The notes below the pieces were generated by a model. It did no database searches. It worked only from the letters and a program-made list of their open reading frames with translations, and was not told where the DNA came from. DNA of 41,822 bases from Escherichia phage vB-Eco-KMB41: the sequence record OR539216.1; one strand, written 5' to 3'. Position 1 is the first letter of the stretch. Each line of letters opens with the position of its first letter. Shown one piece after another: positions 1-41,822 of this stretch. A program made the translations under genes and the position numbers.

Positions 1-61
1 TATCCGATCGGGCCGGACTCGGATCTGGTTGCCCGGTTGAGCGAATATCTTTACCCGACTG

Positions 62-81
62 AATAGCACGAATTGCTAAAA
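62..81 (+). promoter_or_regulatory. Palindromic box site 1 (AATAGCACGAATTGCTAAAA; core TAGCA-N5-TGCTA)
   Basis: Perfect 5-bp inverted repeat with 5-bp spacer; about 22 bp downstream lies TATTAT, then a GC hairpin, SD and ATG of 153..401. The stop codon of the wrap-around ORF (64..66) overlaps the box. Confidence 0.5.
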
Positions 82-152
82 GCGATTTATCAAATGTTGT
101 TATTATCTTTTCACCGGGCGGCAATGGGTCGCCCACTACCGGAGACGAGACG

Positions 153-401
153 ATGGCAAACTTAACAATCATTGTAAAAGGCGATCAAGAGCGCGGGCGT
201 CAGTGGTCACGCCACTTTAAAAACCTGCTCCCGGCGTTCGTGAAAACTGGCACAGTTAAGCGCCATCTCTCATGGAAAGCGCCGGAGTTAACAGGCGAGG
301 AGCCGGAACTGGAGGAGCGCGTGGACGAGTTCACCACACGCGGCGAGTACGAACTGAATCGCCTGATCCACCGTAACAAGATCCGCGCCGACGAATATTA
401 A
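153..401 (+). CDS. hypothetical protein (82 aa)
   Basis: ORF with GGAGACGAG SD-like stretch upstream; no recognisable motif. Confidence 0.55.
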   Translation: MANLTIIVKGDQERGRQWSRHFKNLLPAFVKTGTVKRHLSWKAPELTGEEPELEERVDEFTTRGEYELNRLIHRNKIRADEY

Positions 402-406
402 CAGCC

Positions 407-422
407 TGGCCCTTCGGGGCCA
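407..422 (+). promoter_or_regulatory. Intercistronic GC hairpin with UUCG tetraloop (GGCCC-TTCG-GGGCC), immediately 5' of SD
   Basis: Stem-loop followed by CCCAGGAGC and ATG at 441; near-identical cassette recurs at about 13193..13225. Confidence 0.45.
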
Positions 423-440
423 TCCACCCAGGAGCTACTT

Positions 441-803
441 ATGGCAATTACAGTTAACACTCGTTTCCCGACATACACGGACGCTCTGATCGACTCGCAT
501 CGCGTCCAGGCGCTTCTCCGTGTGAACACATGCGCGAAGCTGGCCCCGGTATCGTGCAACGTGTACGAGCGCGAGAACAAGGGCGAAAAGCTGGGGTTCG
601 GCTACGTGCTGCGCGTCGGTCCGATCACAATCCACTGTAGAGGGATCACCCGGTACTCCGTGGACTACCACGACGAGGGGAGCGGCTGGACTTGCGACGC
701 GGTGACGGCGGAGGACGCTATACAAGAGGCTTACGAGTACCTGGCGAAGCGCCTCCAGTGTCTCCAGCTTGGGATCGCCATCCTGTCGGACGCTGCCGAA
801 TGA
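441..803 (+). CDS. hypothetical protein (120 aa)
   Basis: ORF with AGGAG SD about 7 nt upstream; ATGA stop/start overlap with the next ORF. Confidence 0.6.
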   Translation: MAITVNTRFPTYTDALIDSHRVQALLRVNTCAKLAPVSCNVYERENKGEKLGFGYVLRVGPITIHCRGITRYSVDYHDEGSGWTCDAVTAEDAIQEAYEYLAKRLQCLQLGIAILSDAAE

Positions 804-1036
804 TCCCGGAGAAGGTCCAGCGAAAAGCCGACGAGATTCTGGCCCGGTATTACGCGAAGGAGATCGCGCCTAAGAGGTTGAAGGGGTTCGGCAAGGTATC
901 AGCGTTCAACGTTGGCTATAGCTGGCGGCTCGTAACGTGGGACGAGGGGGAGACGTGGGATCTTTTGTCCCACGAGGAGTACAACAACAAAACGCGGGGC
1001 CGTCGTCAGCGGCTCCAGGTCAAAGGCAAAAGGTAA
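800..1036 (+). CDS. hypothetical basic protein (78 aa)
   Basis: Internal ATG of ORF 692..1036 chosen because it gives an ATGA overlap with 441..803; the longer upstream extension is Arg/Gly-rich and overlaps the previous gene. Confidence 0.45.
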   Translation: MIPEKVQRKADEILARYYAKEIAPKRLKGFGKVSAFNVGYSWRLVTWDEGETWDLLSHEEYNNKTRGRRQRLQVKGKR

Positions 1037-1045
1037 GAGGTATTT

Positions 1046-1357
1046 ATGGAACGTTTCGCACACATTTTTGAAGCACACGATCGCCAGGTTCTGGTCCGCC
1101 GGGGTGAGGACTCCGAGGACAATCCAGCGATCAACCTGATCACTGAGATCCAGGGCGCGGAGTTGTCGTTTAACATCGTGTTCCACCCGGACGACGAAGC
1201 GATGGACGGACAAGCGGCCTACGACGAAGCGATGGCGAAGCGCGATCAAGCCTTCGAGAAGGTGGACACGCTTAAGGAGGCGGCGGAGGGATTCGCTAAA
1301 CAGTTAGCCGGGGCGGTGTCCCCGATGGACGCCTTACGCCTTCTTTCCGGCAAATAA
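1046..1357 (+). CDS. hypothetical acidic protein (103 aa)
   Basis: ORF followed directly by an intrinsic terminator; no recognisable motif. Confidence 0.6.
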   Translation: MERFAHIFEAHDRQVLVRRGEDSEDNPAINLITEIQGAELSFNIVFHPDDEAMDGQAAYDEAMAKRDQAFEKVDTLKEAAEGFAKQLAGAVSPMDALRLLSGK

Positions 1358-1455: not shown

Positions 1456-1809
1456 ATGTCTGAGCATACGACGCTATGGCAATTATTCCAGCTATACCGC
1501 GTTGAGTTGGGTTATTCATTCATCGCGGCATCGGTGGCGGTGTTCCGTCACTGGCAATTGCGCCACCCGTTCCGCGATATCGTGAGCGGCGGGGCTATCT
1601 GCGCTGCTGTCGCTTTCGGTATGAATAATATTTTATCCTTCTTCGGGGTCGATCATGGAACGTGGGGTTATCTGGCCTCCGTGTTCCTGGGCTACGTTGG
1701 CGTAGAGACTGCGCTCGACTGGGCCAGCGAAAAGATCCCATTCCTGAAAAAAATCCGCGCCACTCCGGCGCACACTGCAAACGAGGATCAGACCGATGGC
1801 AAAATTTGA
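1456..1809 (+). CDS. holin, lambda S-like
   Basis: Hydrophobic protein with predicted TM segments; C-terminal part (YLASVFLGYVGVE...KK) resembles lambda S; sits immediately upstream of and overlaps the endolysin. ATG at 1456 preferred over the TTG at 1390 that lies inside the terminator. Confidence 0.8.
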   Translation: MSEHTTLWQLFQLYRVELGYSFIAASVAVFRHWQLRHPFRDIVSGGAICAAVAFGMNNILSFFGVDHGTWGYLASVFLGYVGVETALDWASEKIPFLKKIRATPAHTANEDQTDGKI

Positions 1810-2275
1810 AGTAACGCCACAGCGTAAGGCATTCCTGGACGCGATCGCCGTGGGCGAGGGGACCGATAACGGACGCCAGCAGACCAAAAATCACGGCTAC
1901 GACGTGATCGTGGGCGGCTCCCTGTTCTCCGACTATTCGAAGCATCCGAACCGCCTCGTAAAGCTGCCGAAGCTGGGGATCAATTCAACCGCCGCCGGGC
2001 GTTACCAGCTTTTGAGCCGCTACTATGACGTGTACAAAAAACAGCTTGGACTCCCGGACTTCTCTCCAGCCAGCCAGGACCAGATCGCGCTCCAGCAGAT
2101 CAGCGAGCGTAAAGCGCTGGAGGATATCGACGCGGGCCGGATCAAAGACGCCGTGAAGAAATGCCGGACCATCTGGGCCTCCCTGCCCGGCTCCCCATAC
2201 GGTCAGCGAACGGAGACTTTCGACGACTTCCTGGGCTACTTCCGCGCCGCTGGCGGTAAGGTTGCCGACGAATGA
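1796..2275 (+). CDS. R: endolysin, lambda R-type lytic transglycosylase
   Basis: Translation aligns along its length with lambda R as recalled (QRKAFLD..EGTDNGRQ.T.NHGYDVIVGG.LF.DYS.HP...GRYQLLSR..D.Y.KQLGL.DFSP.SQD..ALQQI.ER.AL..ID.G.I..A...C...WASLPG). Confidence 0.95.
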   Translation: MAKFEVTPQRKAFLDAIAVGEGTDNGRQQTKNHGYDVIVGGSLFSDYSKHPNRLVKLPKLGINSTAAGRYQLLSRYYDVYKKQLGLPDFSPASQDQIALQQISERKALEDIDAGRIKDAVKKCRTIWASLPGSPYGQRTETFDDFLGYFRAAGGKVADE

Positions 2276-2793
2276 TCGCCGCCCTCCGGTTGTTCCTCTC
2301 GACTCACTGGCGCGTCGTGCTGCTGGCTCTTGTCGTGCTGCTGGCGCTGGGGGGATCTTTCTGGGCTGGCTCGGCGTGGACCGATCGGGGCTGGACCGCT
2401 CGCGACAATGCTCGGATCGCGAAGGAATCCACCCAGGAGGCGAACGCACAAGCCGCCGCCCGTATCATTGAACAAGGCCGGGCCATCGCCCGCGAGGAGT
2501 CCGTAAAATATGCGAACGCACAAGCCGCAAAAGCTCGCGCTGATTCTGCCGCTGCTGGCGCTGCTCTTAATCGGTTGCTCGAACGAGCCAGCAAGGAAGC
2601 CGCCAGACGCGAAGCCGCTGATCAGACCGCTTCCCTCGGAAGGGCGTCAGGGGAAAAGACCGCCCGAATGTATTCCGAGTTGCTCGAAGGGACTGGAAAG
2701 ATCGCTCGACGGTATGCTGATATAGCGGAGAAGGCGATCACCGCCGGGGAGGTGTGCGAATTGAACTACGACGCGGTAGAGCGTCAGCAATAA
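2272..2793 (+). CDS. Rz: i-spanin (Rz-like)
   Basis: N-terminal TM segment then long Ala/Arg/Glu-rich helical periplasmic domain; follows endolysin with overlapping start; contains an embedded +1-frame lipoprotein ORF. Confidence 0.8.
   Translation: MIAALRLFLSTHWRVVLLALVVLLALGGSFWAGSAWTDRGWTARDNARIAKESTQEANAQAAARIIEQGRAIAREESVKYANAQAAKARADSAAAGAALNRLLERASKEAARREAADQTASLGRASGEKTARMYSELLEGTGKIARRYADIAEKAITAGEVCELNYDAVERQQ
2510..2725 (+). CDS. Rz1: o-spanin (Rz1-like outer-membrane lipoprotein), embedded in Rz
   Basis: Signal peptide with lipobox LLIGC and Pro-rich mature part, wholly inside the Rz gene in another frame. Confidence 0.8.
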   Translation: MRTHKPQKLALILPLLALLLIGCSNEPARKPPDAKPLIRPLPSEGRQGKRPPECIPSCSKGLERSLDGMLI

Positions 2794-2795
2794 GT

Positions 2796-2820
2796 AAGGG
2801 GCCAGAAGGCCCCTTTTTTA
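2796..2820 (+). terminator. Rho-independent terminator (AAGGGGCC-AGAA-GGCCCCTT + T-run)
   Basis: Perfect 8-bp GC stem and T5 tract right after the Rz stop; also closes the convergent minus-strand gene. Confidence 0.8.
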
Positions 2821-3624
2821 TGCTGCCGGGTTGACCGTGACCGTACAGACGGCGGAGGTAACGGTGTTCGGCGCGACGGTGTTCGAACTGGTGGCAATAC
2901 AGCGGTATTGACCAGCGTCCCCGGTCGCCGGGCTGGCAACGTTCAGCGTTGCGGCGGTAGCCCCGGAGATGTTCGTCCAGGAGGTCCCGCCGTTCGTGGA
3001 CTTCTGCCACTGGTAGGAGTACGGCGCGAGGCCCGTCGTGGAGTTTACCGCGATCGACAAGCTGGCTGCGGTCCCCACGGTCCAGGTGGCGGTCGCCGGG
3101 AGGTTGGTCGAGAGAGCGATCGCTGGCTTGGTACGCTCGCGCAAGCTCTCGGCGGTCTGGCCCGCGCTGTCGGTTACGCGGCAAAAATAATCGCCGTTGT
3201 TCCCTGCTGCGTACCCGGTGATCGTATACGTCGGGGAGTTCGTCCCCACTGGGTTGTCGGTGCTGGATGCCCGGCGAAACCATGCGTAAGTATACGGCGG
3301 GACGCCACCACTCACGGCGACCGTGAACGTCTTGTTACTTCCCAGTGGGATATAACTCGCCCCGGCGTCGTTGGCGTTGTTACCCGGTAAATTTTGGGTA
3401 AACACGATCGGCGGGACCAGCGCCGGATCCAGTTCGATGTAAAACATTTTCGTGGGGTCCAGGTTGGACGGTTCACTGTCCAGCCAGATCACATCCTTTT
3501 GATGGACCTTGCTCGGATCAAGGATTCGCGTCACTTTCCAGCCCATCAGGTCGGCGCGGCGGTAACGATGCCAATAAGCCATAATTTTGTCCTCGTGAAA
3601 TTGTGCGGTATACTGCCCCGGCAT
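2818..3624 (-). CDS. Ig-like domain protein (two tandem Ig-like repeats)
   Basis: Two ~80-aa repeats sharing PPYTYAW/APYSYQW and GDYFC/GQYRC motifs typical of Ig-like folds; N-terminal ~90 aa unrelated. Alternative start at Met15 (about 3582) has a better SD (GAGGA). Confidence 0.75.
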   Translation of the reverse strand: MPGQYTAQFHEDKIMAYWHRYRRADLMGWKVTRILDPSKVHQKDVIWLDSEPSNLDPTKMFYIELDPALVPPIVFTQNLPGNNANDAGASYIPLGSNKTFTVAVSGGVPPYTYAWFRRASSTDNPVGTNSPTYTITGYAAGNNGDYFCRVTDSAGQTAESLRERTKPAIALSTNLPATATWTVGTAASLSIAVNSTTGLAPYSYQWQKSTNGGTSWTNISGATAATLNVASPATGDAGQYRCIATSSNTVAPNTVTSAVCTVTVNPAA

Positions 3625-3683: not shown

Positions 3684-3783
3684 AGAGTACCATCGACACG
3701 CCGAAACCGATTAAAGCCCACAGCGCGGCGCTGGCTGCGATTACGCCCCATATAACGTATTTACTTCCGCGTAAGTCAGTCAT
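3682..3783 (-). CDS. small hydrophobic peptide (33 aa, single predicted TM helix)
   Basis: Unlisted small ORF MTDLRGSKYVIWGVIAASAALWALIGFGVSMVL; its ATG overlaps the TGA of 3780..4172 (ATGA coupling) and it ends at the terminator. Confidence 0.35.
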   Translation of the reverse strand: MTDLRGSKYVIWGVIAASAALWALIGFGVSMVL

Positions 3784-4172
3784 GATATTTTCCCCTCTCT
3801 TTTGAATTTACCCAGGCGCCCGCGAATGGATGCCTTGCTCTTGTTCAACCACTGCCCGACCTGCTCGTGGGTCAGGTCTGCCCGCGTTACCTCATGAAGC
3901 CCGGTAGCCTGAGCGATATCAAGAACGTCGTCCGGCGTCAGTTCATCCACCCAGAAGCGGATCAGCTTCTTGTCCTCGTCAGTGGTCCACCAGCTATAGG
4001 TCCGGCGGTGAGCCAGTGAAACGCCCAGCTTGGACGCTCGGACTTGCATCTGGCGGAAGTTACGCCCGATCAGCTTCGCCAGGTCATGCGCTGGCATCGT
4101 CCCCGCCAGCTTCTCCAGTTCTAAATCTTCCTGCCCGGTCCATCCGATCCGGGTTGCGTTCTTTTTAGCCAC
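3780..4172 (-). CDS. hypothetical protein (130 aa)
   Basis: ORF with GTG start preceded by AAGGAGG SD; no recognisable motif. Confidence 0.65.
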   Translation of the reverse strand: MAKKNATRIGWTGQEDLELEKLAGTMPAHDLAKLIGRNFRQMQVRASKLGVSLAHRRTYSWWTTDEDKKLIRFWVDELTPDDVLDIAQATGLHEVTRADLTHEQVGQWLNKSKASIRGRLGKFKREGKIS

Positions 4173-4443
4173 GTTTGCCTCCTTTGAGGTGCTTCCGGTT
4201 TTTGGTGTCGGCGATCGCGTTCTTGAGATCGTTCTTTCCGCCTTTGGTCCCCGGAACGACGCGCCAGTGATGCGGGTCCGGGTTGTTCAGGTACATCTCG
4301 CCGTCCGGCGTCTCGATCGATATGTCCGCGATCGCCTCCTTGCCGAACACGCGGGAGACTGCGCTGATCATGCCGTCCAGTTCGGCGGCTTGCGCCGCCT
4401 CCCATAACTCCCGGCGCGTTGCCTTAATCGGCCCCGTAGCCAT
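4165..4443 (-). CDS. hypothetical protein (92 aa)
   Basis: ORF in co-directional array with short overlaps; basic C-terminus. Confidence 0.6.
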   Translation of the reverse strand: MATGPIKATRRELWEAAQAAELDGMISAVSRVFGKEAIADISIETPDGEMYLNNPDPHHWRVVPGTKGGKNDLKNAIADTKNRKHLKGGKRG

Positions 4444-4651
4444 AAGCCCCCCGGATAAGCTCGCGGGCGTCGCTCTCTGCCTGAGCCGCTTCGCGCTTTA
4501 AAGCTGCTGTAGCGTGAGGCCCTGCCGCGTACATCTTGAGACGGTTGCGGAGGATCATCGCCACCTCGATCAGAATGTGCGCCTGTTTGAGTAACATCCA
4601 GTTAATCACGACCGCTTTATTTGTTTTGGTCTGAATCAGTGCCTTTTCCAT
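4424..4651 (-). CDS. hypothetical protein (75 aa)
   Basis: ORF with AAGGAG SD 6 nt upstream of ATG. Confidence 0.55.
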   Translation of the reverse strand: MEKALIQTKTNKAVVINWMLLKQAHILIEVAMILRNRLKMYAAGPHATAALKREAAQAESDARELIRGAYGYGAD

Positions 4652-4652
4652 C

Positions 4653-4976
4653 TTAAGCTCCTTTGCTTTCCAGTACGTCGATCACTTTGGTGTAGAAAAC
4701 TTCTTTCGCGCTGAGGGCGGTCAGGCACTCCTCGCGGGTCCGCTTCTTCTCAATACACCAGTAGCAACGGCACAAAGCGGCGCGGAAATAATCCAGTTGC
4801 GGGTCGCTCTTATAATGCGCCTCCAGCTTCTGATTAAGCTCGGCCTCCATCATGGCCTTAAGACCTTTCAGTGACGCCTTACTGGTGCGGATCAGGGTGG
4901 CGTATTTGTGGGCGAAGGCGCGGACCTCTTTCGCTTCCGCCGGGGTGTATTTGATTGTGTTCGGTACTGTAGCCAT
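4653..4976 (-). CDS. hypothetical protein (107 aa)
   Basis: Start set at MATVPN (GAGGA SD upstream); the longer ORF form to 5039 would run through the promoter-like element. Confidence 0.65.
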   Translation of the reverse strand: MATVPNTIKYTPAEAKEVRAFAHKYATLIRTSKASLKGLKAMMEAELNQKLEAHYKSDPQLDYFRAALCRCYWCIEKKRTREECLTALSAKEVFYTKVIDVLESKGA

Positions 4977-5031: not shown

Positions 5032-5050
5032 TTTAGCAAAAAGTGCTATT
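5032..5050 (-). promoter_or_regulatory. Palindromic box site 2 (TAGCA-AAAAG-TGCTA)
   Basis: Same oriented box, followed about 22 bp downstream (minus sense) by TATTAT, then SD and ATG of 4653..4976. Confidence 0.45.
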
Positions 5051-5078: not shown

Positions 5079-5819
5079 TCAGAATGGGGAGTTTTCGATG
5101 AATACCGCGACGGCGAAGCCTTCGGGAGTGGCGGAGCGGATGTTCTTCGTTCGTGTGCTGGATCCTCCCAGCTTCGACCAGCCCGGATTATCCTTCACCG
5201 CCGGGACGCTCTGCGCTGCTGGCATACGGAAGCCGCCACCGCACCAGATCCCCGTCTGCTTCGGGTAAGCATCGCGCGGAGGGTAGATCTCCGGGTATAG
5301 CGTATGCTGGTGGTTCTCCGGCAAGTAGCCGCCGAAGTGGTAAGGGTGGAACCAGTGATCGCAAGGTCGCCACATCGTCGAGAGCCGGGAGATCTTCGGA
5401 TTCTCCAGCATCCAGGGGACCGGGTTCCGGTCCTCATAGTCGCCCTTTTCGTACCCGGCGAACATTGCCACCTGCTCCACCATGCGGGCCAGGTTAACGG
5501 CCTTCTGTTGGAAGCGCGGATCCTTCTTGCGCTTCGCTTCCCACCATCGCGCCCCGGTACAAGTAAGATCCGTACACTCGGCGAAGGATGCAACGAAGAT
5601 CACGCCGGGGCCTACCTCGTCGGCAATGCGAAGCGCTTCCGCTTCCGTGTTCTCTGCGTCGAACATCCGGCCCACACGGATCAGGTTCGGCTCGTTCGGG
5701 TCTGGGTGGATCCCTGGCTCGTGCTGCCCGTCATACATCCAGCATTCGACGCCAGCCTCCAGCCACTTGTCCACCATGATCCGGGTCAGGTTAAAAAGGA
5801 AAATTGCCTTATGCTTCAC
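5079..5819 (-). CDS. hypothetical protein (246 aa), possible nucleic-acid-modifying enzyme
   Basis: Long well-behaved ORF upstream of the terminator; contains ECTDLTC and ENPK stretches but no canonical C5-methyltransferase motif I, so function is left open. Confidence 0.7.
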   Translation of the reverse strand: MKHKAIFLFNLTRIMVDKWLEAGVECWMYDGQHEPGIHPDPNEPNLIRVGRMFDAENTEAEALRIADEVGPGVIFVASFAECTDLTCTGARWWEAKRKKDPRFQQKAVNLARMVEQVAMFAGYEKGDYEDRNPVPWMLENPKISRLSTMWRPCDHWFHPYHFGGYLPENHQHTLYPEIYPPRDAYPKQTGIWCGGGFRMPAAQSVPAVKDNPGWSKLGGSSTRTKNIRSATPEGFAVAVFIENSPF

Positions 5820-6045
5820 GGTTCAGATCCTTCTCGTATTCGTCGGCGTCACGCTTGATCAGCGCGTCCCACTGGTCCATATGGACCGGGTTAAAATCCT
5901 GCTCAAAAGAGAGATCGAGATCCCCGGCGAACAGGAGGCCCTCGGCCTCCGTGTCCACGAGGCCCCGGCGTAGTAGCTCGGCGGCGACCTTCTCCTGGAA
6001 GATGGCCCAGCGGCTATTAGTGTGACCGTCGTTATACTTCATCAC
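5809..6045 (-). CDS. hypothetical acidic protein (78 aa)
   Basis: ORF overlapping both neighbours by a few nt. Confidence 0.55.
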   Translation of the reverse strand: MMKYNDGHTNSRWAIFQEKVAAELLRRGLVDTEAEGLLFAGDLDLSFEQDFNPVHMDQWDALIKRDADEYEKDLNREA

Positions 6046-6626
6046 TAAATCCTCGCTGGCATGATGATCAGCGTTGCGTTGCCGTCCGGCGTTTCGAAGT
6101 CCACGCGGATCGGGTTGGTGTTGCCGTTAAAGCTGAGTTTCGCGAACGGCTTCTTAATGCCGAACTTTTTCCCCAGCTTCTCGATCATTCCGAGGTAAGG
6201 GGTCGCGACGCCGATCACTTCGACGGCCTTCGAGTTCTGGCGGGCCTCGTTCAGCAGACGATCAACGTCGGGATAGTTGGCGTCCACAATGTCCACGGTC
6301 CCCACGGCTACGCGGGCTTTCTTGTGGTCAACGTCGGCGAGGTCCTTCGGCTTGTCTGCCGGAATGTCCAGCCAGTACACGATCCCCGCCTCGGTGTCGA
6401 TCACGGCGGAATAGATCCGCCCAGTCGGTGGCGCGGAGATGTTCAGGATAATCCCCTCCGCTGGAGCCTCGACCAGCTTATGGTCGCTTTCGAGGCAAAC
6501 ATGACCGTTAGACGTGCGGATCCGGCTACCGATGAAGTGGATCGCGTTCAGGTAGTAGCGGACCTCGTTCTGGGCCTTCGTCAGTTGGTGAGCGCGTAAG
6601 GCGCTTACAGGTGCATAAATAATCAT
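6045..6626 (-). CDS. hypothetical protein (193 aa)
   Basis: ORF in replication-associated array; no recognisable motif. Confidence 0.65.
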   Translation of the reverse strand: MIIYAPVSALRAHQLTKAQNEVRYYLNAIHFIGSRIRTSNGHVCLESDHKLVEAPAEGIILNISAPPTGRIYSAVIDTEAGIVYWLDIPADKPKDLADVDHKKARVAVGTVDIVDANYPDVDRLLNEARQNSKAVEVIGVATPYLGMIEKLGKKFGIKKPFAKLSFNGNTNPIRVDFETPDGNATLIIMPARI

Positions 6627-35718: not shown

Positions 35719-36048
35719 TTAGAACTTGATAGCCGGGATGTAAACGGACTCTTTCGCGCCACCTTTCAGGCTGGACGCTGCCACACATCCCCCGGTGATC
35801 CAGTGCTCCAGGTTGATTTTGCCGCCCGCTGCGTTGATGCGCTCCAGCAGGTGCTCCGCCTGTTCGCGTGTCTCAAAGACCGCGTAATGATAAAGCTCGT
35901 CGTAATAGCTGTCGTATGTAGCGGCGAACAGCATCTTAACGCGGAAGGCCGGGAGGCGCTTCGGCATGTCGCGGCCCACGCGCTCGTCGAAGGCTTTCTC
36001 TGTTTTGCTGTAGAAAAGCGGGGATTCAATTTCGAAGTATGTAGCCAT
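35719..36048 (-). CDS. hypothetical protein (109 aa)
   Basis: Start set at MATYFE (GGAGAC SD); the ORF track's 224-aa form would run through the promoter module and the neighbouring membrane-protein gene. Confidence 0.65.
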   Translation of the reverse strand: MATYFEIESPLFYSKTEKAFDERVGRDMPKRLPAFRVKMLFAATYDSYYDELYHYAVFETREQAEHLLERINAAGGKINLEHWITGGCVAASSLKGGAKESVYIPAIKF

Positions 36049-36120
36049 TTTGTCGTCTCCAGTTGGGCGGGACCATTTCCCGCCTCTGGAAATAACTATA
36101 CAGTGATTTATCAAATGTGT

Positions 36121-36139
36121 TTTAGCAATTCGTGCTATT
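36121..36139 (-). promoter_or_regulatory. Palindromic box site 5 (TAGCA-ATTCG-TGCTA, perfect)
   Basis: Followed about 22 bp downstream (minus sense) by TATAGT, then GGCGGGA-loop-TCCCGCC hairpin, SD and ATG at 36048; overlaps the stop codon of 36135..36416. Confidence 0.55.
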
Positions 36140-36416
36140 CGTCCCAGCGCCCCGGCTTGAACAGGACGCCGCGCCGCCAGTCCTGCCACGTCCAGTAAGG
36201 CCAGCCAAACGCCATCAGCACGACGGCGCATATCAGCATAAGCGCGACGATGAAGGCCGCGAGGGGTAGGAGGGCTGGCGGGATGTGCGCCGCCTCCTTG
36301 CGCGTCAGGTTGGCGAGGTGCTTCGCCCCGCCTCCCTGGGTGAACTCGACCACGAACCAGGCTATGCCGACCAGCCACCACGCGAAGATCCAATTTAACA
36401 TTTCAATACATCCCAT
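36135..36416 (-). CDS. small integral membrane protein (93 aa)
   Basis: Two strongly hydrophobic segments (WIFAWWLVGIAWFVV and LPLAAFIVALMLICAVVLMAF). Confidence 0.6.
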   Translation of the reverse strand: MGCIEMLNWIFAWWLVGIAWFVVEFTQGGGAKHLANLTRKEAAHIPPALLPLAAFIVALMLICAVVLMAFGWPYWTWQDWRRGVLFKPGRWDE

Positions 36417-36756
36417 TAGTGAGTAAGTATAAGCGCCCGTTCCTCATGGAGCGGACCATCTGCGAGGATCCCCAGCCTCCCGGCACTCGGTACATCATGC
36501 CGTTAGCGCCCCGGCAGTAGAGGCGGTTACGGTCGCGGAAGCCGCGAAGCTGTCGCCCTGTCTGCGTCCCCTTCGGGTCCACGATGCGGCAGAATACCGG
36601 AGCGCCGCCGTATAGCTGCGTAAGGTCGTGAATGTGCTTACGCTGGGCTTGCTGGACCATCTCCTCCGCCTCTTTCCATGCGCATGACTCGCACAGGCCG
36701 GAGGCAGTACCCGCCGCGATCGGCAGGTGGCAACGTCGGCAGTAACTAAAGACCAT
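36403..36756 (-). CDS. zinc-ribbon protein (117 aa)
   Basis: N-terminal CRRCH...CESC (CxxC-N12-CxxC) motif. Confidence 0.6.
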   Translation of the reverse strand: MVFSYCRRCHLPIAAGTASGLCESCAWKEAEEMVQQAQRKHIHDLTQLYGGAPVFCRIVDPKGTQTGRQLRGFRDRNRLYCRGANGMMYRVPGGWGSSQMVRSMRNGRLYLLTNGMY

Positions 36757-37033
36757 CGGCTGGTCCCTCCTGCATGTTGTCGGCGACCTGCTGCATATAG
36801 ATCGCGTAAAGGTTCTGGCCTATCGCCAGGATATCCTCCGGGCGGAGCAATGCCCGCGCCGTGTGAGGGTTGGAGAGCGCCGCCACCAGGACGTCCCGCT
36901 GGCGATGGTTAAGCCGGACCTCGCTCCACGGTGCGGAGTTCGCCATCTGGATCACCTGCTCGATCTTGAGGTGGTCGAACCAGACAAGGATCTCCGGCTT
37001 CGGCTCCTGCTCCTGCTGCTCGTCGATCACCAT
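36746..37033 (-). CDS. hypothetical protein (95 aa)
   Basis: ORF in tightly packed co-directional array. Confidence 0.55.
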   Translation of the reverse strand: MVIDEQQEQEPKPEILVWFDHLKIEQVIQMANSAPWSEVRLNHRQRDVLVAALSNPHTARALLRPEDILAIGQNLYAIYMQQVADNMQEGPADGL

Positions 37034-37386
37034 TCGCCCGGCTCCTTCGCGTCGCGGTAGCCCATGATCAGCGCTTGCACGACGTCGAACACGTCAGCCC
37101 TGATCGACTGGTGGAGGAACAGCCCGAAGTGTCGGCGTTGCACTCCGTCCGAGAGGTTCCAGTGTTGGAGGTGGTAGTCATGTAAGACCATCGGCTCCAT
37201 CTTGGGCGGCTCGTCCCTGGTCAGGTCGATCAGCGTGTCGTCGTGCTTGAACTCAATCTCCCTGATCATCTGCGTGTCAGGTGTTACGGTGCGGCGCTTG
37301 CCGTCGAACGGCCCGCCGATCAGCAGGGCCAGCATGTACTCCGGTACGGCTGGCGGCTGGTGGTTGCGGTAATGTGTCGGGTGCAT
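37027..37386 (-). CDS. hypothetical protein (119 aa)
   Basis: ORF preceded by GC hairpin and GGGAGGA SD. Confidence 0.6.
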   Translation of the reverse strand: MHPTHYRNHQPPAVPEYMLALLIGGPFDGKRRTVTPDTQMIREIEFKHDDTLIDLTRDEPPKMEPMVLHDYHLQHWNLSDGVQRRHFGLFLHQSIRADVFDVVQALIMGYRDAKEPGEW

Positions 37387-37431
37387 GGTAGATCCTCCCA
37401 GGATGCCCGGCTCTCGACCGGGCGGTGGTTG

Positions 37432-37707
37432 TTAGATGTTCGCGGCGATGAATGCCAGGACTTCGCGGAGGTGCTTCTCGTCGCGGATAGTGGCTGGCAA
37501 TTCCTCTTTCACGCTGCTGTCGAGATAGATATTGCCATTCCATGTATAAGAGCCGTTCGGGTTGACCAGGTAGGAGAACATCCATTCACAATCGTTATCC
37601 GCTTCCCACACGCACAGCAGGATCTTATCGTCGTCCAGGTCCTCGATCGTCACATCCAGGCCGCGCTTCGCTGCGAATTTCTTGGTGGTTGCGTTGACTG
37701 CTTTCAT
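37432..37707 (-). CDS. hypothetical acidic protein (about 91 aa)
   Basis: Start set at MKAVNA (internal Met of ORF 37432..37764); lies downstream of palindromic box site 6. Confidence 0.6.
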   Translation of the reverse strand: MKAVNATTKKFAAKRGLDVTIEDLDDDKILLCVWEADNDCEWMFSYLVNPNGSYTWNGNIYLDSSVKEELPATIRDEKHLREVLAFIAANI

Positions 37708-37780
37708 GGTCTTGCCCTCTGGTTGTTGTGGGCGTCTCGTCGCCCGGTGAAAACATATTATCAATTATCACCGGGGACGT

Positions 37781-37799
37781 TTTAGCAATTCGTGCTATT
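37781..37799 (-). promoter_or_regulatory. Palindromic box site 6 (TAGCA-ATTCG-TGCTA, perfect)
   Basis: Followed about 22 bp downstream (minus sense) by TAATAT, then GGGCG-loop-CGCCC hairpin and the ATG at about 37707. Confidence 0.55.
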
Positions 37800-37977
37800 T
37801 ATCCTTTCTCATTCGTCGGAGTGATCGGACCAGATCGACGACGGCCCAGCCAGACGCCAGCAGGAACGGCGCGAGGACCGCCAGCTTTTCCCAGTTGGTC
37901 AGGATCGTGTCGGTCCCCTTCGTCATGCCGATCCAGGCTATCACCAGGACCTCGTAAGCGAACGCGAGCCAGATCAT
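37795..37977 (-). CDS. small membrane protein (60 aa)
   Basis: Two hydrophobic segments and basic C-terminus RSLRRMRKDK. Confidence 0.5.
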   Translation of the reverse strand: MIWLAFAYEVLVIAWIGMTKGTDTILTNWEKLAVLAPFLLASGWAVVDLVRSLRRMRKDK

Positions 37978-38207
37978 TTACCCAGCCTAACCTTGCGTAC
38001 GATCGTCGCTGCGGTGTCGTAGGCGTCGCGCTGCCGTGGCGAGACGCTACTTTCCCGTAGCTCCACCAGTCCACGCTCCAGGACTTCCAGCGCGGCCCAG
38101 CGCCCGGATAGGTCCATGATCACCTCCTCGGCGTCGCGGTTGATCTTGCCTGGCGGGTGTCCTTCCGCCATCAGCTTGATCTCCTCGGTGGTCATTGGCT
38201 TAAGCAT
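37974..38207 (-). CDS. hypothetical protein (77 aa)
   Basis: ORF with 4-nt overlap to downstream gene. Confidence 0.5.
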   Translation of the reverse strand: MLKPMTTEEIKLMAEGHPPGKINRDAEEVIMDLSGRWAALEVLERGLVELRESSVSPRQRDAYDTAATIVRKVRLGK

Positions 38208-38508
38208 CAGCGCCCCCTTTCGGCCCCAGTTCCTGGTCGATAAAGTCCTGGGCCATCTCGTCCGCGCTGTCGTGGCGTCCGTCCTGCTCGGCCTGGCGAA
38301 TGGCGTCGATCTGCTTCTGGCGCTGATCAGCCATGAAGCCCTCGACCGCCTGGTGTGCGAGCGCCGTCGCCTGGTTGTGGCTGTAGCCCTGTTTGCGGAA
38401 GCGGTTGAACGCGTTCTCCAGCAGTGAGGCGCGTTGGTTCGGGCCTACATACATACGCGAGATATCCGCGACGGCTGATTTCTTCTCTGCATTGTCTTTC
38501 ATCATCAT
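38200..38508 (-). CDS. hypothetical protein (102 aa)
   Basis: ORF with helical, charged composition. Confidence 0.55.
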   Translation of the reverse strand: MMMKDNAEKKSAVADISRMYVGPNQRASLLENAFNRFRKQGYSHNQATALAHQAVEGFMADQRQKQIDAIRQAEQDGRHDSADEMAQDFIDQELGPKGGADA

Positions 38509-38538
38509 CTCCTCGTTTCTTCGTCGTCGTGACGGGCC

Positions 38539-38727
38539 TCACATCAGGCCCAGCATGTTAAACAGGATCGCCGCGAGTGATATCACGATCGCGCCGATGG
38601 TTGTCGCTACCATCAGGAAGTAATTCCACAATCCGAAGCGCTCGATCCAGTCGTTCGATCGTACTGGTTGAGTGTTCCCGATCGGTGTCCGTCTGGGGAA
38701 TAAAATCACGTTGTTATTGTCGCTCAA
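38539..38727 (-). CDS. small membrane protein (62 aa)
   Basis: C-terminal TM segment (FLMVATTIGAIVISLAAILF); apparent TTG start preceded by AAAGGTGA SD. Confidence 0.45.
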   Translation of the reverse strand: MSDNNNVILFPRRTPIGNTQPVRSNDWIERFGLWNYFLMVATTIGAIVISLAAILFNMLGLM

Positions 38728-38749
38728 ACTATATCACCTTTCAATGATT

Positions 38750-38980
38750 AAATCATGGTTACGTGAGGTTTTCATTAAGCCCTCAAAAAGTGCCAGCAAA
38801 TGGCCCCGGTTACATCATTTAAAATCTGTCACCAAATGTTAGTTAAGTGATTGAATTAAATCCGGTTACATTGCAGGTTTCATTGTCTCAAAAAATGTAA
38901 CTTGCGCTTAACTCGGTTACGGTTACAGGTTACATCTCTCTCTATATAGAGAGAGTGTAACTGTCACCGATGTAACCGGG
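38750..38980. repeat. Iteron-like array: at least 8 GGTTAC/GTAACC hexamers (three in tandem at about 38915..38933), TGTCACC motifs and a perfect 20-bp palindrome CTCTCTCTATATAGAGAGAG (about 38936..38955)
   Basis: Read directly; 255-bp non-coding gap immediately downstream of the AAA_25 ATPase gene; hexamer density far above the roughly 1 per 2 kb expected by chance. Confidence 0.7.
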
Positions 38981-38982
38981 CC

Positions 38983-40638
38983 TTAAAAGTCGTTCAGATC
39001 GTCGTCCTGATCCTCCGCTTTTGAGGATGGTTTCCAGTCCGTCGGGAGTGGCTTCTGATCGCGGATTCCACCCAGGAGCGGAGCCGCTTCTTTCGTGGCG
39101 GTCAGCGTCTCGTCTCCGGCGACCTTGATGATCCCCATCGTGTTAGTGGCGTGAAGGAATGCGCGACGGAATGCCGTCTTGTCGATCTGCGGGTCCGCGC
39201 TGTTCCGCGCCCACTCACTGAGCGCCGCCTTTGTCAGCTTCGGAGTGCGGCCTCTGCGCTTGCTGTTGTACTCGTGGACGAAGTTCACCAGTCGGATCGC
39301 GTTCTCCTCCTGCTGGCTGCGCTTCGGCCCCTCGTCGGCCTTCTCCTCCTTGTCGCCAGTCGGTACAGCCTCCAGCGCGTTAATGACGACCAGCGTCCCC
39401 AGGTTGTCGCCAATCTCCCACGCTGCCGGGTTCTGCTGCGCTTCGGGGCGTACTGGCTTCATGCGGGCCATTGCCTCGCGCTTCATCTTGACCAGTTCAG
39501 GCGGGAGCGGGACGGATTGCGTCCGCATGGCGCGAGGAGGGAGGAGCGCACAGCCTTTCGCCTTCGTGTGCTCAATGACAAAAAGCTCCTTGTCCTTGCA
39601 CTTCTTCACCATGATCTCGAATCCGGCGTTTGCCCGGAGGGTTGACGCGCCACGAGCGCCGCGCTCGGTGTCCTTCCCGGTGTGGTGGATCACCATCACG
39701 GCACAGTTGAGCATTTCCGCCAGCTTCGCCGCGTTCGCCATCAGGATCGCCGCCACGTTGTTGTCGTTCTCGTTGAAGTCCTGCCCGCCTACCCATTCGA
39801 TCACCTTGCCGTCCGCGTCACGCTTCGCGGTCTGGCCCACCTTCTGGCCCGCGCTGTTGGCGCTGTAGGTATCAATGACCACGAGGGCCGGTGCGTTCTC
39901 CTCAATGCCGAAGAACGGGGAGGAGAGGACCTTCCCGGCGAAGCGCTGGAGGATCTCCGCGTTATGGAGGGGGACCTGTTCGCCGATGATAAACAGGTTA
40001 TTCAGATCCTTGTTGCCGTTGCGCTTGTACTTCCATCCCGCGTAACGTTCACGGACGCCGCTCGCATCCTCCGGCGCGAAGTACAGGACGGATCCCTGTC
40101 GGACCGGAAGCCCGGCGAAGTCGATCCCGGTGGCGACACAAATCGCCATCTGTAACGCGCAAAAAGTCTTTTTAGCGCCCGACTCGCCGACCAGGAAGCC
40201 CACGGAGCGCTCCGGGACCAGCGACTGGATCACATAGTTAACGGGGGTGATTTTGTTCCCGGCGCGTAACTTGTCCAGGAACTCGTCCGGCTGGTCTGCC
40301 AGCAGTTCGGCGATCGCCTTCTTGTCCTTCTCGCGCTGGTCCTCTGTCGTCTCGCTGCGTGGCTTCGCGACGGGCTTCTGGTTCTCGTCCAGTACGAGGT
40401 CCCACTGGTGATCGTCCTCATTGTCGCCGAACGCGTAAAGCTCCATCTCCGCCAGTGATAGGCCCTGCTCTGCTGCCTGGTCTGCCGCGATCGCCATCTG
40501 CTGGTCCATGTCCGCCTCTGTCGGCTCCGGCGCTGCGTTCAGCCATTCCGGGACGGGTTCCAGACGAGCCTCGCCTGGGAGGATCTGGTCCAGTAGTTCC
40601 TCGCGGGTCGGTTCCTGCTGTTCTTCGTCGTGCATCAT
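38983..40638 (-). CDS. RecA-fold ATPase of the AAA_25/RepA-like type (putative replication initiator or helicase), 551 aa
   Basis: Walker A GESGAKKT, Walker B LVVIDTYS, downstream VMVIHHTGKD motif typical of RepA-like ATPases; acidic N-terminal ~130 aa; flanked on both sides by GGTTAC repeat clusters. Confidence 0.75.
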   Translation of the reverse strand: MMHDEEQQEPTREELLDQILPGEARLEPVPEWLNAAPEPTEADMDQQMAIAADQAAEQGLSLAEMELYAFGDNEDDHQWDLVLDENQKPVAKPRSETTEDQREKDKKAIAELLADQPDEFLDKLRAGNKITPVNYVIQSLVPERSVGFLVGESGAKKTFCALQMAICVATGIDFAGLPVRQGSVLYFAPEDASGVRERYAGWKYKRNGNKDLNNLFIIGEQVPLHNAEILQRFAGKVLSSPFFGIEENAPALVVIDTYSANSAGQKVGQTAKRDADGKVIEWVGGQDFNENDNNVAAILMANAAKLAEMLNCAVMVIHHTGKDTERGARGASTLRANAGFEIMVKKCKDKELFVIEHTKAKGCALLPPRAMRTQSVPLPPELVKMKREAMARMKPVRPEAQQNPAAWEIGDNLGTLVVINALEAVPTGDKEEKADEGPKRSQQEENAIRLVNFVHEYNSKRRGRTPKLTKAALSEWARNSADPQIDKTAFRRAFLHATNTMGIIKVAGDETLTATKEAAPLLGGIRDQKPLPTDWKPSSKAEDQDDDLNDF

Positions 40639-40664
40639 TGTTTAATCACCTCATGGTTACATTA

Positions 40665-40701
40665 CGGGAGACAATGTAACCGCTATTTGTCACCGCGTCA
40701 A
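40665..40701 (-). promoter_or_regulatory. Sigma70-like promoter (TTGACG-17 bp-TACATT) overlapped by inverted repeat GGTTACATT-N9-AATGTAACC
   Basis: Read on minus strand: -35 TTGACG, 17-bp spacer, -10 TACATT, then AGGTGA SD and ATG of the ATPase; the 9-bp-arm palindrome covers the -10 and start region. Confidence 0.5.
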
Positions 40702-40779
40702 TTCAGCGCCAGTAAAGAAAACTCTTTACATCACGGTTACGTTACCTTAAGGTGATAGCCGAACACGACGGAGGTCATT

Positions 40780-41217
40780 ATGTCACTGTTTGACGATGAA
40801 GCGCCACGCGCCCCACTTCGGGCCAACGTAGCGCCACGTAAGACGCCACAGGAGAGACTCCTGGAGATACTGGAGAAGGTCCGCTCCACCGATCCGTCCA
40901 TCCATGACGCGATCGAACAGGGGAGAATGGATCCTTATCTGCCGACGGTCGAGACGCGGAACGCTTTTCTAACTCTGCGCCCGTCGGAGCAAATATTCGC
41001 GGCGTTCTGGGACTGCCCCGGCGTCGATCGTAAGAAGTTAATGGACCTATGCCGACACGCCGGAAAGATGGAGCGAGCCGGAAAATTACGGGACCTTAAG
41101 GTGGACCGCTCGAAGCTGGCGACCACTGAAAGCGGGATCCCCCCAGGCGTCGAGATTGGCCCGGAGTTGGCCCTCGCCGCACTACAATGCAAGCAAGCCA
41201 TGAGGAAAGAGAGATGA
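40780..41217 (+). CDS. hypothetical protein (145 aa)
   Basis: ORF with GGAGG SD 7 nt upstream, first gene of the rightward unit leaving the divergent control region; the overlapping minus-strand ORF 40935..41798 is rejected. Confidence 0.65.
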   Translation: MSLFDDEAPRAPLRANVAPRKTPQERLLEILEKVRSTDPSIHDAIEQGRMDPYLPTVETRNAFLTLRPSEQIFAAFWDCPGVDRKKLMDLCRHAGKMERAGKLRDLKVDRSKLATTESGIPPGVEIGPELALAALQCKQAMRKER

Positions 41218-41822
41218 TCAGATATATCGCAGTAACCGAAGAAGCGGACCAGGACGAGAGCATGGCGTCCCACATCCCGGAGAGTCAGATCGAGCGCATC
41301 GATCGCGCTGCTAATGGTAAGGCTATCCTGATCGTTCGTGAATATCGCGAGAAGTGCCGCGAAGATTCCGAGTGTTACGGTCGGAAGGAATGGCGGATCG
41401 ATGGCTACGAGTCGCAAGAGCGCTACAGCGTGATGAAGTTCGACGACCTGATCGCCTGGCTGAATGGCATCCCGCCGGAGCCGATGGTGGTTGACTTCGA
41501 TCGCCTGTCGCCGGAGGAGCGCGAGAACGTCATGGACAATCTGGTGGCGGCGCGTCATGCCCTGCGCAACGTGAACAGTAAGACCGTACTCCAGCCAGCG
41601 CCAGCGCATCACGTCGGCCTCGACTCGGACGTGTGGGCCGTGGTCAAACTGCTGGAGGCTCGCGAGTGGGCCGAACATTGCACGACGACCGAACTCGGCG
41701 GACGTCTGGAGTCGGAGATCACGAAGCTGGTCGGGACTGAGAACGAAACGGCGGGCAAGCTCAAACGGGCGGAGCAATTGCTGGCGGAGATCCATCACGC
41801 GGTCAATAACGACGGCGGGCTT
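41214..41822 (+). CDS. hypothetical protein, 3'-truncated at window end (203 codons here; continues in frame at 1..66 if the molecule is circular)
   Basis: ATGA overlap with 40780..41217; open to the last base; frame closes exactly at the window end and resumes at position 1 to a TAG at 64..66. Confidence 0.6.
   Translation, partial: MIRYIAVTEEADQDESMASHIPESQIERIDRAANGKAILIVREYREKCREDSECYGRKEWRIDGYESQERYSVMKFDDLIAWLNGIPPEPMVVDFDRLSPEERENVMDNLVAARHALRNVNSKTVLQPAPAHHVGLDSDVWAVVKLLEAREWAEHCTTTELGGRLESEITKLVGTENETAGKLKRAEQLLAEIHHAVNNDGGL

Follow-up and report, generated by a model that had tools for sequence, protein, structure and literature searches.

Genome Organization and Classification

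We analyzed the genome of Escherichia phage vB-Eco-KMB41 (sequence record OR539216.1), a stretch of 41,822 bp with a GC content of ~59% that is called the window throughout, with respect to its gene modules, its lifestyle, and the control of its transcription and replication. Sixty genes were counted, which cover 94.6% of the sequence (Table 1), and a tRNA scan and an Rfam scan of the window were both empty. An open reading frame (ORF) bridges both ends of the window, and its homologue in phage ST231 is contiguous, indicating a complete genome that closes into a circle. Its first base is also the first base of the IME_EC2 record, i.e., the two records share their cut point.

The window was searched, in two halves, against 50,697 phage records by megablast. 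ST231 covered 96% and 75% of the two halves at ~90% identity, and IME_EC2 covered 90% and 82% at 84-87% identity; long collinear matches were also obtained for Salmonella phage Lumpael and Escherichia phages sortsyn and sortregn, and more distant ones for Sortsne, sortkaff, Klebsiella phage IME279 and Kosakonia phage Kc237. Taken together, IME_EC2, ST231, Lumpael and sortsyn gave a window coverage of 80-96% at 84-90% identity. The records of IME_EC2 (NC_047742; type species of Murrayvirus) and ST231 (OP921041) are classified as Caudoviricetes; Murrayvirus. The product of blastn identity and coverage was 0.769 to IME_EC2 and 0.816 to ST231. Given a genus line at ~70% genome-wide nucleotide similarity and a species line at >95%, these values place the window inside Murrayvirus and under the species line, the best value among the members compared being 82% (ST231). 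Murrayvirus is a genus of the International Committee on Taxonomy of Viruses (ICTV), and both features expected of a member, at least ~70% similarity and a conserved gene content and order, were found; in gene-by-gene tblastn, 55 of the 60 window ORFs had an IME_EC2 match with the order kept. A 2024 report lists vB-EcoP_KMB41 (OR539216) as a Murrayvirus of 41.8 kb that is 78% similar to EC2 (PMC11162368). The genus and the module composition described below are already known, and several sequenced relatives share both.

By homology, the genome consists of four modules, namely a CUS-3/Sf101/Sf6-type virion module, a T1-like DNA-metabolism module, a lambda-type S/R/Rz-Rz1 lysis cassette, and a RepA-like helicase gene with ~25 small genes to which no function could be assigned. 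An initial annotation, made from the sequence alone, had described a mosaic of P22-like virion genes in P22 order, a lambda-like lysis cassette and a replication module with a primase, an SF2 helicase with a zinc-finger tail, a VRR-NUC protein, a RepA-like ATPase and Dam. Homology searches with Pfam, PHROGs and six-frame tblastn bore out each of these parts, the VRR-NUC match being weak.

The Virion Module

Pfam families P22_portal, P22_CoatProtein, P22_Tail-4, Phage_stabilise, P22_gp7, Inj_translocase and Head_binding were detected on the minus strand, and in six-frame tblastn the P22 proteins portal, coat, gp4, gp10, gp26, gp7, gp20, gp16 (weakly) and gp9 matched the window in the exact P22 order. 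P22 TerL, scaffold, gp14, gp19 and gp15 had no match in the window in the same search, and the virion proteins are only 25-46% identical to those of P22 itself. The coat protein is 72% identical to those of Sf101 and of a 39-kb record, pEM03-18-08_2, but 26% identical to that of P22, and its match to the P22 coat structure in the PDB (E 4e-34) is far weaker than that to 8skg. Portal, TerL and endolysin are 53%, 38% and 64% identical, respectively, to those of the CUS-3-like pEM03-18-08_2. Judged from these homologies, the virion module is of the CUS-3/Sf101/Sf6 subtype rather than of P22 proper, so that the term P22-like applies to it loosely.

The tailspike combines a P22/Sf6-type head-binding domain (aa 12-114) with a region (aa 117-737) that matches the colanidase gp150 of Phi92, and its PDB matches are 6e0v (E 1e-83), which is this colanidase of the myovirus Phi92, and 7sg7 (E 8e-30). 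By these matches it is a chimera of a P22-type head-binding domain and a Phi92 gp150-type colanidase domain. The protein at the gp16 position also departs from its P22 counterpart, since it has 1008 aa and an SLT domain whereas P22 gp16 has 609 aa and no such domain; the arrangement is reminiscent of T7 gp16. The tail needle has 190 aa and is 91% identical to that of ST231, and it aligns only to the first half of a 256-aa "tail needle knob" protein of IME_EC2 (IME_EC2 21678-22448). The IME_EC2 needle has a knob whereas that of the window has none, and these differences indicate a swap of the C-terminal domain within Murrayvirus.

The 184-aa protein encoded upstream of TerL is likely the small terminase, and it had no PDB sequence match and fell into a PHROG of unknown function. 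Between this gene and that of TerL lies a conserved gene whose product carries an HExxH motif, HELVH, and has neither a Pfam family nor an annotated PHROG; the position is an odd one for a possible metalloprotease. The stretch at 33504-33576 (minus strand), directly 5' of the putative small-terminase gene, holds a promoter-like TTGATC-17-GATAAT, two GGTTACG copies, both conserved in IME_EC2 and in ST231, and a stem AATCCTCCG...CGGAGGATT with seven T behind it; this stretch may be the boundary of the early genes and the late operon. Four small accessory genes are inserted between portal and scaffold and are bracketed by terminator-like hairpins at 28635-28653 and 27198-27224. One gene of the insert, 28054-28359 (minus strand), had no tblastn homologue in IME_EC2, ST231 or Sortsne and is a window-specific accessory gene.

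The DNA-Metabolism Module

Six window proteins are 30-48% identical to the T1 primase, helicase, nuclease, ExoVIII-like exonuclease, Erf and Dam (Table 1) and keep the local order of the T1 annotation, and the nearest relatives of the helicase outside its own clade are found in Drexlerviridae (46-48% identity). The primase gene is divergent from the helicase gene, and the primase had no PDB sequence match. The Pfam match of the VRR-NUC-like protein was weak, with 17.3 bits against a cut-off of 23.8, and a D...ELK motif can be read in its sequence. Beyond these six, no window protein matched T1, and T1-type siphovirus structural genes are absent. By homology the primase/helicase/VRR-NUC/ExoVIII/Erf/Dam block is therefore T1-like (Drexlerviridae-type), a source that the initial annotation had not named. 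No gene for a phage RNA polymerase or DNA polymerase is encoded. The "RusA-like" label that PHROG 3007 gives to the 193-aa protein next to Dam was rejected, as it had no support from Pfam or the PDB and the protein did not match real RusA.

The Lysis Cassette

The holin gene lies directly upstream of the endolysin gene, with overlapping ends, and is followed by a spanin gene into which a second, lipoprotein-encoding ORF is embedded in the +1 frame. Across 96% of its length, the endolysin shows 63% identity to lambda R, whereas it had no match to P22 gp19; the holin belongs to the lambda S family. Both members of the Rz/Rz1-like spanin pair matched PHROGs (312 and 11621), and no tblastn match was obtained between them and lambda Rz/Rz1.

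Integrity of the Assembly

The gene that takes the place of P22 gene 14 is conserved, but in the window it is frameshifted. The repeat search detected two tandem copies of 55 bp (21481-21535 and 21536-21590; 98% identical), and when one copy was removed in silico, a 134-aa ORF was restored that is close to its homologues in IME_EC2, ST231 and Sortsne. The duplication may be either an assembly error or a genuine defect, and it needs attention before the sequence serves as a reference.

Such a possible assembly error, and the fact that modules of very different ancestry adjoin, would fit a mosaic that arose as an assembly chimera of unrelated phages, or a prophage cut from a chromosome. However, at least eight isolates that were sequenced independently, and metagenomic contigs 41-42.7 kb long, show the same module order at full length. 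In addition, the window ends are joined by an ORF, and there is no bacterial flanking DNA, tRNA or integrase. The collinear independent genomes effectively refute an assembly chimera, and we regard this whole explanation as negligible in probability.

Lifestyle

The initial annotation had also claimed that the window lacks integrase, a CI-type repressor, antiterminator and O/P-type replication genes, and had concluded that it is a virulent phage of the P22 morphotype. Integrase, excisionase, CI/CII/CIII, Cro, antirepressor, N/Q and O/P-type genes were not found by Pfam or PHROGs in 59 of the 60 genes, the remaining one (36135-36416) having been outside these scans, and 24 unselected antisense ORFs of at least 150 aa had no Pfam match at all. 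When 19 P22 and 10 CUS-3-like proteins of lysogeny, regulation and replication were compared with the circularized window by six-frame tblastn, nothing reached E ≤ 0.1, whereas the structural proteins of that run had E values down to 5e-122. P22 int/xis, c2/cro/c1/c3, the 24/23 antiterminators, the 18/12 replication genes, nin, immI and gtr thus have no counterpart in the window. With regard to the repressor, the claim stands insofar as no CI was found; it has to be amended in that a 77-aa Cro/C1-type protein of the XRE family, with a helix-turn-helix (HTH) domain, is encoded (see below). Of the features that define a P22-like phage in the strict, temperate lambdoid sense, the virion cluster is present, and the lambdoid early region and an integrase or prophage state are not.

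An integrated copy, which would have argued for a prophage, was not found either. Megablast against 5,426 complete E. coli genomes gave nothing except for a 39-66-bp stretch of one small gene. A portal-based search of 185,579 species-representative genomes of GTDB returned one close relative, a genome-length contig of 42.7 kb, and a scan of IMG/VR returned 12 loci, all on contigs of at most 42.7 kb. The GTDB contig, QFQS01000013.1 (42,764 bp), is assigned to a metagenome-assembled genome (MAG) of Cereibacter sphaeroides; its portal is 84% identical to that of the window and its gene order is the same. The contig is a phage genome that was sorted into the bin of a bacterium. Among 72,556 plasmids there was no Murrayvirus-like record. 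NZ_CP063485.1 (pEM03-18-08_2, 39,096 bp) is filed as an E. coli plasmid and is a complete CUS-3-like lambdoid temperate P22-like phage with int, cII, cIII, Q, nin genes, DnaB and virion genes. Since it carries the lambdoid temperate genes, it can be taken as a positive control for the genes that are missing from the window.

The behavior of relatives, all of them lytic isolates from sewage or wastewater, points in the same direction. IME-EC2 appears in a list of lytic phages from sewage (PMC3896407), every one of the Danish isolates lysed MG1655 (PMC7552041), and the related Kc237 lyses its host with a latent period of 40 min (PMC8402661). Taking gene content, database absence and lytic relatives together, we read the window as the complete genome of a virulent Murrayvirus podovirus, of a species distinct from IME_EC2 and ST231 and with four modules of different ancestry, at a probability of roughly 0.88.

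Alternatively, the phage could be temperate in an unconventional way and persist as a non-integrating, plasmid-like prophage or carrier, with the XRE protein as its repressor, the RepA-like protein and adjacent iterons as its replicon, and a ParE-like addiction toxin. The XRE gene is indeed present and its Sortsne counterpart is annotated as a "transcriptional repressor", the AAA_25 protein resembles plasmid RepA helicases and has iterons at both flanks, a ParE_like domain protein is encoded at 800-1036, and ~25 genes are without known function. However, no ParA/ParB, telomerase, integrase or repressor of CI length was found, the resemblance of the RepA-like protein to its plasmid counterparts amounts to 24-34% identity, and the sole close coat match in the plasmid set is the lambdoid phage mentioned above. 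Moreover, the E. coli genomes and plasmids searched contain no copy, the relatives were all isolated as plaque-forming lytic phages, and replication genes are shared with the virulent T1. We therefore consider a plasmid-like prophage very improbable and retain the reading of a virulent phage.

Candidate Palindrome Promoters and the XRE Protein

The initial annotation had supposed a distinct regulatory scheme; this was a guess, for which the palindromes and iterons described here and below are candidate elements. The repeat search also returned an element of 25-63 nt in several copies, the core of which is the palindrome TAGCA-N5-TGCTA. With at most one mismatch allowed, this core occurs six times in the window, as compared with 0.36 copies expected by chance, and every copy is intergenic and oriented with the downstream gene. 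The distance from the palindrome to the -10 hexamer is 22 nt (23 nt in one copy), the hexamer has a TGn extension in four of the six cases, and a -35 box at the proper distance is missing at all six. Because they lie 22-23 nt 5' of the -10 hexamer, in place of a -35 box, the palindromes are centered near -42. The genes behind them include the operon of Dam and the second methylase and several accessory genes.

Palindrome cassettes occur at orthologous places in IME_EC2 and ST231, and seven copies each were found in the more distant Skarpretter and C130_2. In Sortsnevirus the palindromes are absent, and the orthologous promoters have an ordinary -35 box (TTGCAT or TTGCGG, 17-nt spacer). In the XRE protein, the recognition helix is QLSRYEN for Murrayvirus, Skarpretter and C130_2 and RLSCYEN for Sortsne, although the overall identity to the window protein is 70% for Sortsne and only 43-46% for Skarpretter and C130_2. 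Since the recognition helix co-varies with the presence of the palindrome, the XRE protein is proposed as its binder. A CI-like C-terminal domain is missing from this protein, and the relatives in the PDB are small XRE proteins of a generic kind. In the C130_2 record, an unannotated ORF at 20475-20663 (plus strand) encodes an XRE HTH protein 46% identical to that of the window and fills an apparent gap at the end of the recombination operon.

According to this proposal, the XRE protein would bind the six palindromes near -42 of extended -10 promoters that lack a -35 box, and its binding would turn accessory genes on or off together as one regulon. At slightly less than even odds, Murrayvirus, Skarprettervirus and Hungariovirus may thus share a hitherto undescribed control scheme, in which a regulon of a 70-77-aa XRE protein (six to seven promoters with the 15-bp palindrome, including those of both methyltransferases and of several swappable accessory genes, the timing of which it would set) and an exchangeable RepA-like origin would replace lambdoid immunity, antitermination and O/P functions.

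The direction of the switch can be read in two ways. The XRE protein might be a Cro-like repressor that shuts the six promoters late in infection, rather than an activator of class II type. Four of the promoters could, by virtue of their extended -10 (TGn), fire without an activator; small single-domain XRE proteins are usually repressors, and the PDB relatives include SinR, HipB, C.AhdI and DdrO; and the XRE gene is the last of the helicase-recombination operon, so that its product would accumulate after the operon has been expressed. However, a site near -42 without a -35 box has the geometry of class II activation, which is known for CRP/FNR and for lambda CI at PRM, and Sortsne, which has no palindrome, has gained a proper -35 box, as expected if the need for an activator had been replaced. 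The repressor is a reading to which we give somewhat less than even odds, and the proposed scheme is kept here as a switch of either sign.

A sigma-54 (-24/-12) reading of the palindrome element was rejected, as TAGCAC-N3-TTGCT differs from TGGCAC-N5-TTGC, in which GG and GC are exactly 10 nt apart, by AG in place of GG and by a spacing that is 2 nt short in all six copies. A generic sigma-70 scan gave no more sites than in shuffled sequence, and the leader hairpins 3' of four promoters were more stable than shuffled ones in only two of the four (z -5.1, -2.7, -1.4 and -1.3).

The RepA-Like Gene and Its Iterons

The AAA_25 protein is 24-34% identical to plasmid RepA helicases, and in the PDB its only relative is the RepA helicase of RSF1010 (1g8y, E 1e-3). 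Its gene has clusters of short repeats to either side, next to an AT-centered palindrome: 10 of the 18 GGTTACR heptamers of the genome fall within the 396 nt that flank the gene, seven downstream of it and three in its promoter region. In the latter, an iteron overlaps the -10 box of the minus-strand promoter TTGACG-17-TACATT. These iteron regions are among the few parts of the window without alignment to IME_EC2 or ST231. The layout is nevertheless kept in the relatives with other repeats, namely GTTAAC in IME_EC2, TAACAT in ST231, and GGTAAC/GTTACC in Sortsne and the MAG contig QFQS01000013.1. The iteron regions are thus candidates for an origin and an autoregulatory region with exchangeable specificity, the logic of which would be like that of iteron replicons. 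GC skew follows the transcription strand and locates no origin in the window.

The N-terminus of the RepA-like protein was considered as the reader of the iterons. The window protein has a Sortsne-like N-terminus, of another type than in IME_EC2 and ST231, and the window, Sortsne and the MAG contig share both this N-terminal type and GGTWAC-like repeats. This explanation holds only in part, and it was rejected: the N-termini of IME_EC2 and ST231 are nearly identical and their iterons are different, and therefore the N-terminus does not explain iteron specificity. In the IME_EC2 record, within 38456-38852, the annotated RepA-like protein gp59 ends ~50 aa early, and a different frame immediately downstream encodes the conserved C-terminus (…IKMAGDETLTA…DDLSDF). 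This suggests that the IME_EC2 record contains a frameshift or a sequencing error.

Small and Accessory Genes

The 78-aa ORF at 800-1036 (plus strand) has a Pfam ParE_like toxin domain (E 4e-16) and overlaps the stop of the upstream 120-aa ORF by 4 nt, a toxin-antitoxin-like arrangement in a lytic phage. The gene at 4653-4976 (minus strand), directly behind palindrome P2, had no tblastn homologue in IME_EC2, ST231 or Sortsne and is likewise a window-specific accessory gene. Within the gene at 37432-37710 (minus strand; PHROG 6147), a stretch of 39-66 bp is up to 100% identical to hypothetical genes of 34 E. coli chromosomes, and the gene is 82.5% identical across 272 bp to Cronobacter phage ESP2949-1; it lies behind a palindrome promoter and seems to be an accessory gene exchanged by horizontal transfer. 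CRISPR spacers were rejected as the source of the matches of at least 99% in these 34 chromosomes, as all of them lie in that one stretch and inside annotated hypothetical genes. Note that small proteins were concatenated with GS linkers for the Pfam scan, and that matches to Pfam "Serglycin" are artefacts of these linkers.

Table 1. Genes and sequence features of the KMB41 window, in order of position (nt).
Feature	Position	Strand	Evidence or remark
Junction ORF, 3' end	1-66	+	Start at 41214, crosses the window end; 224 aa
Palindrome P1, TAGCACGAATTGCTA	64-78	+	22 nt 5' of TGtTATTAT, then 46 nt to ATG at 153
Four small genes	153-1357	+	153-401, 441-803, 800-1036, 1046-1357
Holin, lambda S family	1456-1809	+	Phage_holin_3_1 (PF05106), E 2.6e-7; 28% identical to lambda S
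Endolysin, lambda R type (lytic transglycosylase fold)	1796-2275	+	PDB 1am7 (lambda lysozyme), E 4e-58
Rz-like i-spanin	2272-2793	+	DUF2514
Rz1-like lipoprotein ORF, embedded in spanin gene	2510-2725	+	+1 frame; signal peptide, lipobox LLIGC
Bidirectional terminator-like hairpin	2796-2815	both	Between convergent lysis and Ig-like genes
Ig-domain protein	2818-3624	-	Pfam Ig_3; PHROG 2973, E 4e-65; Hoc-like decoration or adhesin
Four small genes	3780-4976	-	3780-4172, PHROG 323 "transcriptional regulator"
Palindrome P2, TAGCACTTTTTGCTA (read on minus strand)	5034-5048	-	23 nt 5' of TGtTATTAT
Second DNA methyltransferase	5079-5819	-	PHROG 757, E 2.5e-64; no Pfam match
193-aa protein	6045-6626	-	PHROG 3007 label "RusA-like"
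Dam-type N6-adenine DNA methyltransferase	6641-7282	-	PF05869, E 4e-44; 34% identical to T1 Dam
Palindrome P3 (one mismatch)	7341-7355	-	22 nt 5' of TATCTT, ahead of Dam gene
DNA primase	7437-8255	-	Zn_Ribbon_Prim; PHROG 510, E 2e-50; 30% identical to T1 primase
SF2 helicase, Cys-rich C-terminal region	8321-10360	+	ResIII + Helicase_C; 48% identical to T1 gp22
VRR-NUC-like PD-(D/E)xK nuclease	10347-10829	+	33% identical to T1 gp21
ExoVIII-like PDDEXK exonuclease	10869-11909	+	DUF3799; T1 homologue 38%
Erf annealase	11906-12634	+	ERF; T1 homologue 34%
SSB	12637-13185	+	Pfam SSB
HNH-like endonuclease	13229-13669	+	PHROG 2340
XRE/Cro-C1-type HTH protein, 77 aa	13717-13950	+	HTH_3, E 2.5e-15; candidate binder of TAGCA-N5-TGCTA
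Terminator-like hairpin	13984-14005	-	Convergent junction
Tailspike	14009-16231	-	Pfam Head_binding, E 2e-32, + colanidase (PDB); PHROG 6117
gp16-position ejection protein, 1008 aa	16259-19285	-	N-terminal SLT; weak P22 gp16 match, E 7e-3
gp20-like ejection protein	19285-20610	-	Inj_translocase; 25% identical to P22
gp7-like ejection protein	20610-21272	-	P22_gp7; 36-38% identical to P22
Conserved gene at P22 gene 14 position, frameshifted	21256-21715	-	55-bp tandem duplication
Tail needle	21715-22287	-	PHROG 1219
gp10-like protein	22301-23752	-	Pfam Phage_stabilise, E 4e-137
gp4-like protein	23749-24204	-	Pfam P22_Tail-4
Coat	24813-26072	-	P22_CoatProtein, E 4e-71; PDB 8skg, E 6e-192
Scaffold	26109-27107	-	PHROG 648
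Four small accessory genes	27236-28589	-	Between portal and scaffold; terminator-like hairpins at both sides
Palindrome P4	28055-28069	-	In accessory insert 27236-28589
Portal	28684-30918	-	P22_portal, E 2e-155; best PDB match Sf6 portal 7sfs, E 5e-198
TerL	30934-32556	-	Pfam Terminase_3; 38% identical to CUS-3-like TerL
HExxH-motif protein, 145 aa	32534-32971	-	PHROG of unknown function
Putative small terminase, 184 aa	32949-33503	-	Position and N-terminal basic motif only
~16 small genes of unknown function	33577-38727	-	Presumed early or host take-over
Palindrome P5	36123-36137	-	In small-gene cluster 33577-38727
Two-helix membrane protein, 93 aa	36135-36416	- (cluster)	60th gene, outside Pfam/PHROG scans
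Palindrome P6	37783-37797	-	In small-gene cluster 33577-38727
Iteron region, 7 GGTTACR + palindrome CTCTCTCTATATAGAGAGAG	38728-38982		Candidate replication origin/control region
AAA_25/RepA-like ATPase, putative replicative helicase-initiator	38983-40638	-	Pfam AAA_25, E 6e-25, residues 127-324
Divergent promoter region, 3 GGTTACR	40639-40779		Minus-strand TTGACG-17-TACATT
145-aa gene and start of junction ORF	40780-41822	+	40780-41217; junction ORF from 41214

Proposed Infection Cycle and Its Meaning

From the gene content, the following course of infection may be envisaged. The phage would adsorb to colanic acid or capsule and degrade it, and its DNA would be ejected via the gp7/gp20/gp16-type proteins, one of which has a lytic transglycosylase domain. 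Transcription would be carried out by the host sigma-70 RNA polymerase in many short units, without a phage polymerase or N/Q. Replication would probably start at the iteron/palindrome region beside the RepA-like gene and would use the phage primase, helicases and SSB together with the host polymerase, since the window has no polymerase gene. ExoVIII/Erf recombination would yield concatemers, and the two methyltransferases would modify the phage DNA. Packaging would begin at a defined start and leave ~300 bp of terminal redundancy, as measured for IME-EC2 (PMC3896407); the C130_2 record is annotated with terminal repeats of 284 bp. Lysis would then proceed through holin, transglycosylase and spanin.

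Several points weigh against this picture of a virulent phage with its own control scheme. The virulent lifestyle is deduced from gene content, database absence and the behavior of relatives, and the Cro/C1-type HTH, ParE-like and RepA-like proteins, together with the ~25 function-less genes, leave room for an unconventional form of maintenance. The palindrome promoters and the origin are predictions from sequence patterns, the link between XRE protein and palindrome is a co-variation in four genera with few independent events, and the RepA-like N-terminus does not account for iteron specificity. In addition, the ORF at the gene 14 position is broken as assembled, and this may reflect an assembly error or a defective variant.

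The gain for classification is small, as the window falls into a genus of lytic coliphages that has been named and is represented in GenBank, and the lack of lysogeny genes is as expected of an isolate of the phage-therapy type. The genome is of more value as a clean case of module exchange across lifestyles and morphotypes, in which a virion of temperate lambdoid type is combined with the DNA metabolism of the virulent siphovirus T1 and a colanidase of myovirus type. What the present analysis adds is the T1-like source of the replication block, the CUS-3/Sf101-type assignment of the virion, and two leads on the control of regulation and replication; if true, the palindrome promoters and swappable iterons would provide the first regulatory and replication model for this group.

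Comparison with Known Systems

P22-like temperate phages (the Lederbergvirus P22, and CUS-3, Sf101 and Sf6) have in common with the window the set and order of virion genes, the head-binding domain of the tailspike, a lambda-S-type holin and Erf. P22 has a long headful redundancy, whereas the relatives of the window have short terminal repeats of ~300 bp (PMC3896407). The gene order of the lysis cassette, including the embedded Rz1, is that of S/R/Rz/Rz1 in phage lambda; upstream of the window cassette there is no Q-dependent late promoter.

T1, a classic virulent phage, and other Drexlerviridae share with the window the divergent primase and SF2 helicase genes with a small nuclease, the adjacent ExoVIII-like/Erf pair, and Dam. 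T1 differs in its siphovirus virion genes and in its other lysis and early genes, and it has no detectable relative of the window's RepA-like protein. Replicons of the RSF1010 RepA type have a RecA-fold, AAA_25 helicase-like protein in common with the window, although the sequence relation is very distant. The P4 alpha protein with its ori and crr forms a comparable iteron-controlled helicase replicon; in the window, the primase is a separate gene, ~8.6 kb from the RepA-like gene around the circle.

Sortsnevirus, Skarprettervirus and Hungariovirus (C130_2), sister genera of lytic podoviruses, have the four-module layout and the strand blocks of the window, at a lower nucleotide identity and with dUTPase and other extra genes. 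The closest likeness is to the Murrayvirus relatives IME_EC2, ST231, Lumpael, sortsyn and sortregn, which agree with the window in genome size (41-42 kb), GC content (~59%), gene order and strand blocks, and most of whose proteins are 80-100% identical to its own.

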